Source: Candidatus Aenigmatarchaeota archaeon (GTDB lineage: Archaea > Aenigmatarchaeota > Aenigmatarchaeia > PWEA01). From it: a DNA stretch of 44,690 nucleotides. The stretch covers positions 1-44,690 of the forward strand of contig JBKHHH010000001.1 in NCBI GenBank assembly GCA_046539285.1, read 5' to 3'. Made by a program: the position numbers and the translations under genes. Shown piece by piece: positions 6,010 to 44,690 of this stretch. Within the stretch, counting starts at the first letter, position 1; every line of letters begins with the position of its first letter. The notes under the pieces were generated by a model. It was not told the origin of the DNA, made no database searches, and saw only the letters and a list, made by a program, of their open reading frames with translations.

Positions 6010-6609
6010 ATGAACCGTACGGAGCTGGAGATAAAGCTTGAGAGACTGGACAGCTTCTCCGAGCCTAAGCCTGAACTGGAGCAGTATCAGACCCCGCCGT
6101 CTATAGCGGCCGATCTTCTCTGGAGCCTGTATATGAACGGCGAGCTGGAGGGAAAGAAGGTCGTCGACCTGGGCTGTGGAACCGGACTGCTTGCGATCGG
6201 GGCCAAGCTACTCGGTGCCGGAGAAGTGGTGGCTGTAGATAAGGACAGGGAGGCGATAAGATTGGCCGAGGCGAACGCAAGAAGCCTGGGTCTGAACGTT
6301 GAGTTTGTATGTGAGGAGATAGAGAACGTGGATCTGAGAGCCGATCTTGTTCTCCAGAACCCACCCTTTGGATCGCAGGAAAAGGGCAGTGACCGCCCCT
6401 TTCTTGAAAAGGCTCTGGAAGTTGCTCCGATCGTCTATTCCTTTCATATGAAGGAGACGGACGGTTTTGTCCGCAAGTTCGTCGAGAGTTTGGACGGAAA
6501 GGTGGTCGATTGTGTGACCTTTGATTTTCCACTGAAGAGAACGATGCCTTGGCACGAGAAAGAGAAAAAACTAATCGAAGTAAATCTTTACAGTATTGAA
6601 AGAAAGTAG
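6010..6609 (+). CDS. METTL5-like SAM-dependent N6-adenine RNA methyltransferase (COG2263 type)
   Basis: Has the SAM motif VVDLGCGTGLLAIGA and the catalytic NPPFG. The size (199 aa) fits this family. Confidence 0.75.
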   Translation: MNRTELEIKLERLDSFSEPKPELEQYQTPPSIAADLLWSLYMNGELEGKKVVDLGCGTGLLAIGAKLLGAGEVVAVDKDREAIRLAEANARSLGLNVEFVCEEIENVDLRADLVLQNPPFGSQEKGSDRPFLEKALEVAPIVYSFHMKETDGFVRKFVESLDGKVVDCVTFDFPLKRTMPWHEKEKKLIEVNLYSIERK

Positions 6610-6990
6610 TTACTCGGCTCGAACTGCATTGATCTGTCCGTCCTGTCCCGGTCGCGAAGTTATCTTTGCCTTCCCGTTCTCTGTTTCGACCACAGTTCCC
6701 TTGGTCAGAATGTTTCTCCGCGCGAGATGCGGGTTGGACGGAGTCTCGAGCACGTTTTTGATTTTTTCTTTCTTTGTCTTCCCTGCTTCTGGATCGGTTA
6801 CATTGGCCTCGCTGGCGAACCTCAGCCGCGTCTTCTCATTCTTCTTGCCTCTGGTTTCGACGAACTTTCGTCTCTCTTCGTCGGCCAGCTTGCAGTCCAG
6901 AGTCTCGCGACCGAGCTGATGCTTTCTGTGCTTGCGCTTCTTGGTTTTCTTCCCGCCGGATATCTTTCTTCTGGATTCTTTGTGCCACAT
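6610..6990 (-). CDS. rps8e: 30S ribosomal protein S8e
   Basis: MWHKESRRKISGGKKTKKRKHRKHQLGRE... matches the eS8 N-terminus; 126 aa. Confidence 0.9.
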   Translation of the reverse strand: MWHKESRRKISGGKKTKKRKHRKHQLGRETLDCKLADEERRKFVETRGKKNEKTRLRFASEANVTDPEAGKTKKEKIKNVLETPSNPHLARRNILTKGTVVETENGKAKITSRPGQDGQINAVRAE

Positions 6991-8213: not shown

Positions 8214-8301
8214 TGGTGGGCTCGACGGGATTTGAACCCGCGACTCCAAGGTTTCTCCGTAGTTAAGAGCCTTGTGCTCTGCCAGACTGAGCTACGAGCC
8301 C
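8214..8301 (-). tRNA. tRNA-Lys(CTT) with an 11-nt anticodon-loop intron (about 8253-8263), CCA encoded
   Basis: Minus strand reads GGGCTCG-TA-GCTCAGTCTGGCAGAGC-A-CAAGG-CTCTTA[11]A-CCTTG-GAGTC-GCGGG-TTCAAAT-CCCGT-CGAGCCC-A-CCA. Confidence 0.9.
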
Positions 8302-30461: not shown

Positions 30462-30995
30462 TCACTTTGTATGTTCTGGATGGGATTTTCCTTTATGGAT
30501 GTTGAGTCCTTGTTTTGAATCGTACGTCTTGCCACATATCTCGCATTTGAAGCCACTTTTCTTCTGCTCTTCTTCTTCTTTTTCCTCTTCCTCTGTCTCG
30601 ACTTCCTCTTCCCTCTCTTTTAGTTCTTCTTCGACTTCACCGCCGACTCTCTCCACTATCTTTTCTCTGGCTCGGTCGGAGAGATCGGGTTTGACTATCA
30701 TTAAATTGGAGGGATGAAATTCGGTATGGACTTCCGTTCCGTCTGGCTTTTCCTTCTTTGCGTCTTCAAGGGTGACCCTTCCTTTGCTAAGGTTCACGCC
30801 CTTGACCTTGCTTTCTGTTCCACTCTCATCTCCCCTCATCACTTTGACCTTGTCACCTTCTCGCAGAGACATGCTTCTTCGGCCCAGCTCCCTTCTCAGT
30901 TTATCGTTCAGGGGCGCGGACACCATCTTCTGTTTTCTGTGTAGAGGTGCCTCTGCGGCGGATCTTCTCTGTTTTCTTGCCTTCTTTGATTTCAT
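30462..30995 (-). CDS. rpl24: 50S ribosomal protein L24 (uL24) fused to an acidic linker and a C-terminal C2H2 zinc finger
   Basis: Residues 1-119 form a complete uL24 with its KOW motif (GDKVKVMRGDESGTESKV). Residues 120-177 are E-rich and are followed by FKCEICGKTYDSKQGLNIHKGKSH. Confidence 0.9.
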   Translation of the reverse strand: MKSKKARKQRRSAAEAPLHRKQKMVSAPLNDKLRRELGRRSMSLREGDKVKVMRGDESGTESKVKGVNLSKGRVTLEDAKKEKPDGTEVHTEFHPSNLMIVKPDLSDRAREKIVERVGGEVEEELKEREEEVETEEEEKEEEEQKKSGFKCEICGKTYDSKQGLNIHKGKSHPEHTK

Positions 30996-31725: not shown

Positions 31726-32004
31726 TCACCATTTTTTCAATCTTTTTTTGATCCTTTCCTCCGGCTTTCCCTGTATCAGGTCACCGGAGACCTTTACTTT
31801 CTTGCCAGACGGCAGCTCGAAGACGAACTTACGCCCGGATTTCTGTACTGTTTTTACCTCTACATCGGCCTCGATCTTTAAAACGTTTTCCTGTTCGTCC
31901 ACTACCTTTCCGCTCAGTCCCTGTTCGTCAGTATTACTACTCTCGATTACCTCGACTTCGAGACCTATTATTTCATGCCGAGGCAGGTTTTTAACTGTTC
32001 TCAT
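31726..32004 (-). CDS. rnp1: RNase P protein component 1 (Rpp29/Pop4)
   Basis: RHEIIGLEVEVIESSNTDEQGLSGKVVDEQENVLKIE is the Rpp29 Sm-like fold motif. It sits in the conserved position between aIF1 and S17. Confidence 0.85.
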   Translation of the reverse strand: MRTVKNLPRHEIIGLEVEVIESSNTDEQGLSGKVVDEQENVLKIEADVEVKTVQKSGRKFVFELPSGKKVKVSGDLIQGKPEERIKKRLKKW

Positions 32005-32306
32005 CCTTTTATCTTTATTTTGCTTTCGGGGAACCCGAGTTTTACCAGGAGGTCCTCCATCTTGCGAAGATGGTTGCCCTGGAGTTCGATCTTGCCGTCC
32101 TTGTACGTTCCGCCGCAGGCCAGATTTTTCTTCAACTTCTTGGCCATTTCTTCCGGGTCCATGCCCTGGGAAACGTTGTCGACGACCGTGATCACCTTGC
32201 CGTACCTCCTTCGGGAGGTATAGACCTCGATCATCTCTTCTTCCTTGGCTATCGTGTCACAAACACAGAGCTCCTCCGGTAGTCCACAATCGGGACAGGT
32301 TGCGAT
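32001..32306 (-). CDS. Translation initiation factor aIF1 (SUI1 family); start codon non-canonical or unresolved
   Basis: SUI1 core is GKVITVVDNV...LACGGTYKDGKIELQGNH. Upstream of the first ATG (32234), the frame stays open and encodes the conserved zinc knuckle IATCPDCGLPEELCVCDTIAKEEE. There is no ATG/GTG/TTG in that stretch; the candidate start is ATC at 32304-32306. Confidence 0.75.
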   Translation of the reverse strand: MATCPDCGLPEELCVCDTIAKEEEMIEVYTSRRRYGKVITVVDNVSQGMDPEEMAKKLKKNLACGGTYKDGKIELQGNHLRKMEDLLVKLGFPESKIKIKG

Positions 32307-32312
32307 TAAAGA

Positions 32313-32507
32313 TCACCTTTCATTTAAAATTGTATTTATTCTGGCAATTGTTTTTTTCATTGCCTTTATCTTGCCTGGGTTTTCCGGCACGCCACCGATC
32401 TCTATCTGAGCTCTCTCCTTGGCTATCTCCAGTTTCAGTTCTTCCTTCTTCTCTTCCAGCCCGCTTTTATCCATCTCTCTCAGTTCGTCTATTCTGGCGA
32501 TGGCCAT
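32313..32507 (-). CDS. rpl29: 50S ribosomal protein L29 (uL29)
   Basis: 64 aa; IDELREMDKSGLEEKKEELKLEI...KIKAMKKTIARINTIL is the uL29 pattern. Confidence 0.9.
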   Translation of the reverse strand: MAIARIDELREMDKSGLEEKKEELKLEIAKERAQIEIGGVPENPGKIKAMKKTIARINTILNER

Positions 32508-32509
32508 TT

Positions 32510-33328
32510 TTATTCACCGTCTTCGATCTTTTTCTTCAGATATTTTTTCATTCCCTTTCGATCCTTGTCCTTCTTTTCGTATTCCATTATCTTTTCATAG
32601 TCGTCGATATCAACTTCAATACCTTCCATTGCGTTCTTGGCATCGCTTATTGAGTTGCTCAGTATCTCGTCTATCGTTTCCTCGGAGATTTCTTCTTCCT
32701 TTTCCTCCTTCTTTCTCCTTTCTTCTTCCCTCTGTCTTTTCTCTTCCAGTCTTTTCCTTTGGTCTTCGGGCATCCTTTCCATAATTCTCACCTTGATGCC
32801 GATGGTTCCGGGCTGCATCACGGCCTGTGTCGTCGATTCGTCTACCAGCCTTTTGGCCGGTTCGCCGCAACTCTTCAGGTAACCGTCCGTGAACTTTTCC
32901 GTCCGGCCTCGCGAGCCAGACAGTTTTCCGGATACACGGATCTCGGCTCCGACGGCGCCTCTTTCCATAATGCTCCTCAGTATTCCATTACATATTCTTC
33001 TCCGGTTGACGCCTCTCTCCATGGCACTCTTTATCTCGTTGGCCACGATCTTGGCGTTCAGCTCTGGTTTCTCTATCTCGCTTACATCTATCTGTGGGTT
33101 TTCCATACCGAATTCCTCTTCCAGTTTCTTGGTGACCTCGTTTATCTTTTTTCCACCACGGCCGATGATCATCCCTGGTTTATCGGCATGGATGGTCAGA
33201 CGCATCCCCATCGGCGTCCTCCGGATGTCGGTCTCTGAGTAACCGGCTCCGTCAAACTCCTTGGACAGGAATTCTTCTATCTTGTTTTTTCTGATACCGT
33301 CTTTGATAAAATTCTTTTCTTGTGCCAT
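32510..33328 (-). CDS. rps3: 30S ribosomal protein S3 (uS3) with long charged C-terminal tail
   Basis: KH domain (RLTIHADKPGMIIGRGGKKI) and uS3 C-domain (GAEIRVSGKLSG) are present. Residues about 186-272 are K/E/D-rich. Confidence 0.95.
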   Translation of the reverse strand: MAQEKNFIKDGIRKNKIEEFLSKEFDGAGYSETDIRRTPMGMRLTIHADKPGMIIGRGGKKINEVTKKLEEEFGMENPQIDVSEIEKPELNAKIVANEIKSAMERGVNRRRICNGILRSIMERGAVGAEIRVSGKLSGSRGRTEKFTDGYLKSCGEPAKRLVDESTTQAVMQPGTIGIKVRIMERMPEDQRKRLEEKRQREEERRKKEEKEEEISEETIDEILSNSISDAKNAMEGIEVDIDDYEKIMEYEKKDKDRKGMKKYLKKKIEDGE

Positions 33329-43955: not shown

Positions 43956-44690
43956 ATGGATATAAAGATAGTCGGTGGTGGTGCAGCCGGTCTGATCTCG
44001 GCCCTCTACCTCAGGAAACTGGACAAGGCTGAGATAACTGTTTACGAGAAACAGACCCGCGACAGTTACGAGTCAACACCTTGCGGCGAAGGAATCTCCT
44101 TCGACAAGATAAGCGAACTCAGGGAAGAAACCGGTTTCGATTCCTTTCCCCATGTCTCAAAGGAGGTCAGAGGCATCGAGCTGATCTGTCCGAACATGAC
44201 CTCGAGTTACGTCCACAAGGAGGGCGCGGTTCTGAACAGAGACGGGTGGCAGAGGACGATGATCGAGTTCCTTGAAGAGAGAGGAGTCCAGTTCCGGTTC
44301 GATCAAGAGATAGAAAGCAGCGACGATTTAGATTACGACATCCTGGTCGGCGCCGAGGGGCCGGTTTCGAAGATAAGACAGGAGATCGGAGGAAGTATAG
44401 ACGTCTTCTCGTCCGTCCAGTATAAGATGAAGCTGGACAGAAGTCCGGATTATCTGGAGTTCTACGCCGACAAAATGTTTGACGGGGGCTACGGGTGGGT
44501 CTTTCCCAAGGAGAAAATGGCCAACGTTGGCTGCGAGGGAAGTTTCAAGAGATTGGATAGATTTCTCGAAAAGTACGATATTGACGGCGAAATAATTGAA
44601 AAGCAGGCCTATCCCATCGGCGTCAGCGGTACTAAACAACAAGAAGGCAGCATATACATTATAGGCGGGGCCGGTGGCCTGACCAACGCC
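43956..44690 (+). CDS. Geranylgeranyl reductase family FAD-dependent oxidoreductase (partial, runs off window end)
   Basis: GGAGG SD lies 6 nt before the ATG. Has the FAD motif IVGGGAAGL, then GAEGPVSKIR and GGYGWVFPK, typical of the GGR family. The frame is open to the window end. Confidence 0.8.
   Translation, partial: MDIKIVGGGAAGLISALYLRKLDKAEITVYEKQTRDSYESTPCGEGISFDKISELREETGFDSFPHVSKEVRGIELICPNMTSSYVHKEGAVLNRDGWQRTMIEFLEERGVQFRFDQEIESSDDLDYDILVGAEGPVSKIRQEIGGSIDVFSSVQYKMKLDRSPDYLEFYADKMFDGGYGWVFPKEKMANVGCEGSFKRLDRFLEKYDIDGEIIEKQAYPIGVSGTKQQEGSIYIIGGAGGLTNA

Follow-up and report, generated by a model that had tools for sequence, protein, structure and literature searches.

A probable AUC start codon of the initiation factor gene aIF1 in an Aenigmatarchaeota ribosomal-protein operon, and its possible autoregulation

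The gene for archaeal translation initiation factor aIF1 (SUI1 family) in an uncultured Candidatus Aenigmatarchaeota archaeon very probably begins at an AUC codon, to judge from its position at the family's methionine, the Shine-Dalgarno motif at ordinary distance before it and its retention in related sequences. The fuller reading, in which Shine-Dalgarno-directed initiation at this AUC keeps aIF1 expression low and probably sensitive to aIF1 itself (autoregulated), is one that we consider rather probable. The window, that is, the whole stretch of DNA that was analysed, comprises 44,690 nt (assembly GCA_046539285.1, contig JBKHHH010000001.1, positions 1 to 44,690), and the proteins closest to those it encodes come from metagenome-assembled genomes of Aenigmatarchaeota, which are DPANN archaea.

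The aIF1 locus and its upstream codons

The window contains the gene order S19-L22-S3-L29-aIF1-Rpp29-S17-L14-L24, a ribosomal-protein operon whose order is common to related loci. Two genes of this operon are non-ribosomal, those for aIF1 and for RNase P protein component 1 (rnp1), and aIF1 is located between rpl29 and rnp1 in the compared loci, as it is in the window (Table 1). The ATG of rnp1, as read from the sequence, overlaps the TGA of aIF1 as ATGA (32004-32001, minus strand). On the other side of aIF1, rpl29 matches its full profile to the last residue (PF00831, TIGR00012), and its 3′ end reads AAT GAA AGG TGA on the minus strand.

Several further features of the window were recorded alongside this locus. 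Past its S3_C domain, which ends at residue 182 of 272, S3 (32510-33328, minus strand) continues in a C-terminal tail of about 90 residues rich in Lys and Glu. L24, a member of the L26e family (30462-30995, minus strand), has an acidic linker and, at residues 149-173 near the C-terminus, a zinc finger of the C2H2 type, KCEICGKTYDSKQGLNIHKGKSHPEH, for which the Pfam zf-C2H2 matches fall slightly under gathering scores. As the L24 products on related contigs are also 170-178 aa long, this extension may be a general trait of the clade. The only tRNA genes in the window are those for tRNA-Lys and tRNA-Asp, and no initiator tRNA gene was found in it. At 88 nt, the tRNA-Lys(CTT) gene reported by ARAGORN (8214-8301, minus strand) is long for a tRNA, and an intron or extension may be present.

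Table 1 Coordinates of features at and around the rpl29-aIF1-rnp1 junction of the window
Feature	Position	Strand	Remarks
rpl29 (ribosomal protein L29)	32507..32313	-	ATG start; TGA stop 32315-32313; PF00831 1e-17, TIGR00012
Shine-Dalgarno-like AGGTGATC of aIF1	32311..32318	-	overlaps rpl29 stop codon; GGTGA + 6 nt + ATC
ATC, proposed near-cognate initiation codon of aIF1	32306-32304	-	family's Met position
aIF1 (SUI1) CDS as proposed	32001..32306	-	101 codons + TGA (32003-32001)
Zinc-knuckle codons CPDCGLPEELCVC	32259..32297	-	motif CX2CGLPX3C(phi)C
First ATG of aIF1 ORF (internal Met)	32232..32234	-	start of 77-aa gene call
rnp1 (RNase P protein component 1, Rpp29)	31726..32004	-	PF01868 1.7e-23, NF046110

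Directly after the TGA of rpl29, the same frame continues as TCT TTA ATC GCA ACC TGT CCC GAT TGT GGA (minus strand) and encodes IATCPDCGLPEELCVCDTIAKEEE. No ATG, GTG or TTG occurs between the L29 stop and the first Cys codon (TGT, 32297-32295), and the first canonical codon is the ATG at 32234-32232. An earlier note, prepared from the sequence, had described this junction, its coordinates, the absence of a canonical start and the conserved Cys motif, and re-reading of the sequence found the description accurate in all these respects.

The frame was identified as aIF1 by PF01253, with 71.2 bits (cut-off 25.5; 1e-19), and by NF002096 (aIF1/YciH), with 124 bits (cut-off 98; 2.6e-36). The NF002096 match covers profile positions 4-101 of 102, beginning with the Thr just before the first Cys, and the solved aIF1 of M. 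jannaschii (4MO0) aligns from its residue 4, ICPRCGLPKELCVC, with E = 4.3e-31. Taken together, the profile and structure alignments place the family N-terminus at the ATC codon. The aIF1 proteins of M. jannaschii, P. abyssi and S. solfataricus belong to the same protein family as the product described here. Its N-terminal zinc knuckle, CX2CGLPX3C(phi)C, is present as CPDCGLPEELCVC and is the same as that of M. jannaschii aIF1, with zinc binding predicted from the motif; among 744 archaeal aIF1 sequences, 64% have such a knuckle, and measurements on the M. jannaschii protein detected zinc (PMC6237735). The basic loop 1, R-Y-G-K, is likewise the same as in characterised archaeal aIF1 and appears in the window protein as RRRYGK, with G36 and K37 invariant in the alignment; loop-1 residues R31, Y32 and K34 have roles in 30S binding and mRNA stabilisation (PMC6237735). 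By this sequence evidence, the codons upstream of 32234 are genuine aIF1 coding sequence and not a chance open frame.

An assembly error at the junction, a possibility raised in the earlier note, was ruled out. Two independent assemblies from different runs (L161, SRR19844287; L162, SRR19844286) have a junction identical to that of the window, and P0005, the 77-aa gene call that begins at the internal ATG, occurs on both contigs. The junction is also kept in L164, which is 92% identical in the called protein and retains AGGTGATCTTTAATC / AAAGGTGATCTTTAATCGCAAC, while the codons just downstream differ synonymously.

Automatic gene callers begin the gene at the ATG at 32234 and give a 77-aa product (P0005, P0013). 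If that ATG were the true start, aIF1 would be a 77-residue protein without the zinc knuckle and the upstream frame a decaying remnant; about a third of archaeal aIF1 proteins are indeed without the knuckle (PMC6237735). Several observations nevertheless make this start highly unlikely. Over the 21 codons that begin with the first Cys (the knuckle and the next 8 codons), pN/pS was 0.097, against 0.222 in the SUI1 domain, with many synonymous changes across the upstream codons and synonymous sites near saturation (pS about 0.85). A ratio this low indicates that the zinc knuckle is translated and constrained. All four knuckle Cys are kept in 13/13 members of the window clade, which comprises 13 distinct sequences that are 64-92% identical to the window. 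The Met at 32234 occurs in the window and L164 only, with Ser or Lys in the other 11/13 clade members; since it is not conserved, this ATG is not the start of the clade. Additionally, no Shine-Dalgarno motif precedes it.

Truncated gene calls are not confined to the 77-aa products. P0006, P0008, P0012, P0014 and P0015 are called at 93 aa, and the calls of both lengths, which begin at internal Met or Leu codons, are regarded as artefacts because the callers accept only ATG, GTG or TTG. They drop the zinc knuckle wholly or partly from database entries. The NCBI CDS of P0004, in the one relative checked (L171), begins at the homologous ATC, and the annotated N-terminus of P0002 and P0003, MANCPDCG, implies an ATC start too.

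Start-codon choice in the window and among relatives

GGTGA lies 4-6 nt before 13 ATG-started genes of the window. Within the operon, this distance is 6 nt for rpl29 (32518/32507), 4 nt for S17, 5 nt for L14 and 4 nt for L24, and the ATC of aIF1 falls within the same range. Its arrangement matches the strong Shine-Dalgarno sequence of the P. abyssi aEF1A mRNA, GGAGGUGAU-UUAA-AUG (PMC6237735). The TTA codon at 32309-32307 was rejected as a start of aIF1; it stands merely 3 nt past GGTGA and is replaced by AAA, TAA or GAG in relatives.

Both strands of the window were scanned for near-cognate codons that stand behind a Shine-Dalgarno motif, have no canonical alternative and are followed by at least 60 codons, and aIF1 was the sole match among real genes. 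The other matches lie inside or antisense to ATG-started genes, and general use of near-cognate starts in the genome was rejected as far as the window extends. Two long ORFs, 6101-6835 and 44167-44544 (-), which have no early canonical starts, were set aside, their translations resembling non-coding frames. The 111 nt around the junction folded at -17.7 kcal/mol and shuffled sequences at -17.9 on average (z = 0.06), which gives no signal of an RNA structure masking the Shine-Dalgarno motif or the start.

Related loci were drawn from species-representative genomes (80), from metagenomes (80) and via exact-protein look-ups (12). At the family Met position, the 150 unique aIF1 junctions carry ATG in 120 cases, ATC in 11, CTG in 7, ATA in 6, and GTG and TTG in 3 each. 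Every non-ATG junction belongs to a subtree of Aenigmatarchaeota except L020 (GTG), which comes from a Hadarchaeota assembly; with that exception, those of the 160 scan loci outside the non-AUG subtree carry ATG, including Methanocaldococcus (L065, L147). The underlying tree, built by neighbour joining from five concatenated proteins and having no support values, is approximate. In this tree, the non-AUG loci fall together into a single large subtree of Aenigmatarchaeota, within which L010, L033, L138, L031 and L034 are ATG tips, and a separate Aenigmatarchaeota clade is all ATG. The weak start is therefore dispensable, because most archaea, one clade of Aenigmatarchaeota and a few tips within the non-AUG subtree itself use ATG.

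Within the window clade, the codon is ATC in 12/13 sequences and ATA in the remaining one (L163). GGTG with a 7-nt spacing precedes 10 of the 11 unique ATC junctions, and L171 has the equivalent GGAGGAGA with 6 nt. The neighbouring sister clade, represented by 15 loci, uses CTG, ATA, TTG or GTG and shows zero ATG, and a third small branch (L028, L032, L141, L160) uses ATA. A stop just upstream leaves no canonical option in several loci, among them L002 and L081-L083 (TAA ATC), L001 and L084 (TAA AAA ATC), L101 (TAA CTG), L091 and L093 (TGA AAG GAA ATA) and L160. Possible canonical alternatives exist elsewhere: in L165 an ATG immediately precedes the first Cys codon, and an in-frame GTG lies inside the Shine-Dalgarno motif of L163, L003, L016, L019, L032 and similar loci. 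The genes for S3, L29, Rpp29, S17 and L14 on the same contigs have ATG starts in almost all cases from the window clade.

The codon usage of the clade bears on whether ATC is kept as a codon or as an isoleucine. Internal Ile codons of the clade's aIF1 genes are distributed as ATA 60 (61%), ATC 24 (24%) and ATT 14 (14%), and even invariant internal Ile positions vary among the three. That the start position stays ATC while these codons drift indicates selection on the specific codon, beyond mere isoleucine. Initiation at the near-cognate AUC, the first of three options listed in the earlier note, has thereby gained strong comparative support from a normal Shine-Dalgarno distance and a codon conserved in the clade.

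Some peculiarities of individual relatives were also noted. Six loci (L004, L079, L086, L087, L088, L143) of the sister clade, the lineage with CTG, TTG or GTG at the aIF1 start, have TTG as the start codon of rpl29, and weak canonical starts may be somewhat commoner in that lineage. At about 1210-1500 of L001, a unit of about 55 nt that includes the Shine-Dalgarno motif, ATC and the first four aIF1 codons occurs three times around an N run, and in L084 the 3′ end of rpl29 is duplicated between rpl29 and aIF1; the repeats in both loci reflect either errors of scaffolding or genuine tandem duplication of the start region. In L019, the approximately 330 nt between rpl29 and the CTG-started aIF1 contain an additional Cys-rich ORF, about 100 codons long.

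Relation of the aIF1 start to rpl29

The earlier note had laid weight on the in-frame position of aIF1 behind the L29 UGA and had offered two options that depend on rpl29, namely reinitiation after L29 and read-through of its stop. In the window, 6 nt separate the rpl29 TGA from ATC. Comparison of this junction among relatives, a check proposed in that note, showed that the non-AUG codon and the Cys motif are conserved in the clade and that the arrangement with rpl29 is variable.

Read-through of the UGA would make an L29-aIF1 fusion (...ILNER-X-SLIATCPDCG) the only source of knuckle-bearing aIF1. An in-frame L29 UGA with no further stop is present in the window and in L161, L162, L164, L166, L167 and L172, as such a fusion would need. 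It is not a constant of the relatives, among which neither one frame nor a single stop is kept: the L29 stop is out of frame with aIF1 in L002, L083, L168-170 and L163, a second in-frame stop stands directly before ATC in L081 and L082 (TGA AAA TAA ATC), and rpl29 of L171 ends with TAA 27 nt upstream of ATC. Furthermore, TGA ends many genes of the window, including those for EF-1alpha and EF-2, and L29 stops exactly at its profile end. Frame, second stops and distance thus refute the fusion in these relatives, and in the window it is so improbable that we give it almost no weight.

Coupling of termination to reinitiation is known in archaea. Ribosomes finishing rpl29 could restart at AUC, and aIF1 would then depend on L29 translation and not on fresh 30S binding. 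The close apposition of the two genes is consistent with this route, since in the window and many relatives the L29 stop either overlaps the aIF1 start or is no more than about 12 nt from it, and the Shine-Dalgarno motif overlaps the rpl29 stop codon. However, relatives retain a near-cognate start even when 134-336 nt separate the L29 stop from the first Cys codon downstream (L084, 138 nt; L001, 288 nt; L101, 134 nt; L019, 336 nt) and when the genes overlap, with the L29 stop downstream of the aIF1 start (L003, L079, L086, L088, L165). A Shine-Dalgarno motif belonging to aIF1 itself precedes its start at the usual distance in nearly all unique ATC junctions, and reinitiation leaves the non-AUG codon unexplained. 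As the account of this gene it is improbable; the distant and overlapping stops of relatives indicate that reinitiation is not required, and in the window it could contribute.

What stands of the earlier interpretation is thus initiation at AUC, on comparative grounds. Read-through fails in the relatives, and the in-frame position behind L29 is incidental, as frame and distance vary among them.

Proposed expression control and comparison with known systems

In the mechanism that we favour, the Shine-Dalgarno sequence AGGUGAUC, overlapping the rpl29 stop, would pair with the 3′ end of 16S rRNA and set AUC in the P site at the 6-nt distance used by AUG genes of the operon. We infer that AUC is decoded by the initiator Met-tRNA, which would pair with it despite a third-position mismatch. 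The resulting protein would be the full-length 101-residue aIF1 with a Met-Ala-Thr-Cys start, zinc knuckle included, and its predicted N-terminal tryptic peptide is (M)ATCPDCGLPEELCVCDTIAK. A near-cognate codon would be expected to initiate poorly, giving low aIF1 levels relative to the ribosomal proteins encoded on either side; no measurement of how efficiently AUC serves as a start codon in archaea was found in the literature. Because the rnp1 start overlaps the aIF1 stop, translation of this RNase P subunit is probably coupled to that of the weakly initiated aIF1 and hence to the same low output.

Sensitivity of this start to aIF1 itself is suggested by what the factor does elsewhere. In S. 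solfataricus, the 30S complex with aIF1 binds an AUG mRNA and not an AUU mRNA, as reported in PMC4705826 and PMC6237735, and P. abyssi aIF1 holds the P-site tRNA unaccommodated, favouring rejection of wrong complexes (PMC6237735). Since aIF1 destabilises initiation complexes on non-AUG codons, its own synthesis should respond inversely to its level: abundant aIF1 would lower, and scarce aIF1 would raise, further production. By analogy with these proteins, negative feedback of aIF1 on its own AUC start may operate in this organism, and we regard the case for it as evenly balanced.

The AUC start could alternatively serve fixed attenuation, setting only a constant low level of aIF1, and of the coupled rnp1, within a very highly translated operon, with no feedback. 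The identity of the two genes suits such a role, as aIF1 and rnp1 form the non-ribosomal pair of the operon and overlap as ATGA. The turnover of the weak codon among relatives (ATC, ATA, CTG, TTG, GTG) is also what would be expected if weakness alone counted, and some tips carry ATG. Two points weigh against a purely fixed effect. The rejection of non-AUG complexes by aIF1 in vitro, as given in PMC6237735 and PMC4705826, makes some sensitivity to aIF1 hard to avoid, and the window clade retains ATC specifically and not any weak codon. We therefore hold fixed attenuation to be possible but rather unlikely.

The autoregulatory reading has counterparts in the two other domains. In E. coli, changing the AUU start of infC to AUG abolishes autocontrol (Butler et al. 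1987, as cited in PMC4705826). Like aIF1 here, the infC product IF3 is a factor that rejects non-canonical starts, and its gene has an AUN near-cognate start of its own behind a normal Shine-Dalgarno sequence, with the codon conserved in the lineage. The two proteins are nonetheless unrelated and have different folds; the infC codon is AUU, whereas AUC is found here and AUA, CUG, UUG or GUG in relatives; and the infC trait is near-universal, whereas the aIF1 trait is confined to part of one archaeal phylum and is known here from sequence. Eukaryotic eIF1 (SUI1), by contrast, is a homologue of aIF1 (PF01253). It discriminates against suboptimal initiation sites and thereby limits its own translation (Ivanov et al. 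2010, as described in PMC4705826). The eIF1 gene keeps AUG in a poor Kozak context and relies on scanning, unlike the aIF1 gene here, which has a non-AUG codon guided by a Shine-Dalgarno motif. The window aIF1 would thus be an eIF1 homologue using an infC-style device. The parallel with infC and eIF1 autoregulation, which rests on the AUU discrimination of S. solfataricus aIF1, is a reasonable inference.

Extended to its relatives, this reading would make aIF1 feedback through a near-cognate start (AUC, AUA or CUG, with UUG or GUG in some) a feature of a large Aenigmatarchaeota subtree and a third independent origin of such control, a proposal that could as readily prove wrong as right. It would entail that the non-AUG state was kept over long evolution while the identity of the codon changed, and on this, too, our judgement is evenly divided. 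No report of a non-AUG start or of start-codon autoregulation of archaeal aIF1 was found in the full text of the journals searched.

If the reading is true, the same regulatory logic arose in all three domains of life, with bacteria and archaea having reached it through unrelated proteins and eukaryotes by a different device, a poor AUG context. The aIF1 mRNAs of these archaea would then offer a natural, conserved means of gauging the stringency of aIF1 on AUC, AUA and CUG. A 2014 review stated that whether GUG or UUG starts bring any selective advantage for archaeal translational control remained to be determined (PMC4705826). The aIF1 gene of Aenigmatarchaeota would, if the reading is true, answer the question whether non-AUG starts serve translational control in archaea.
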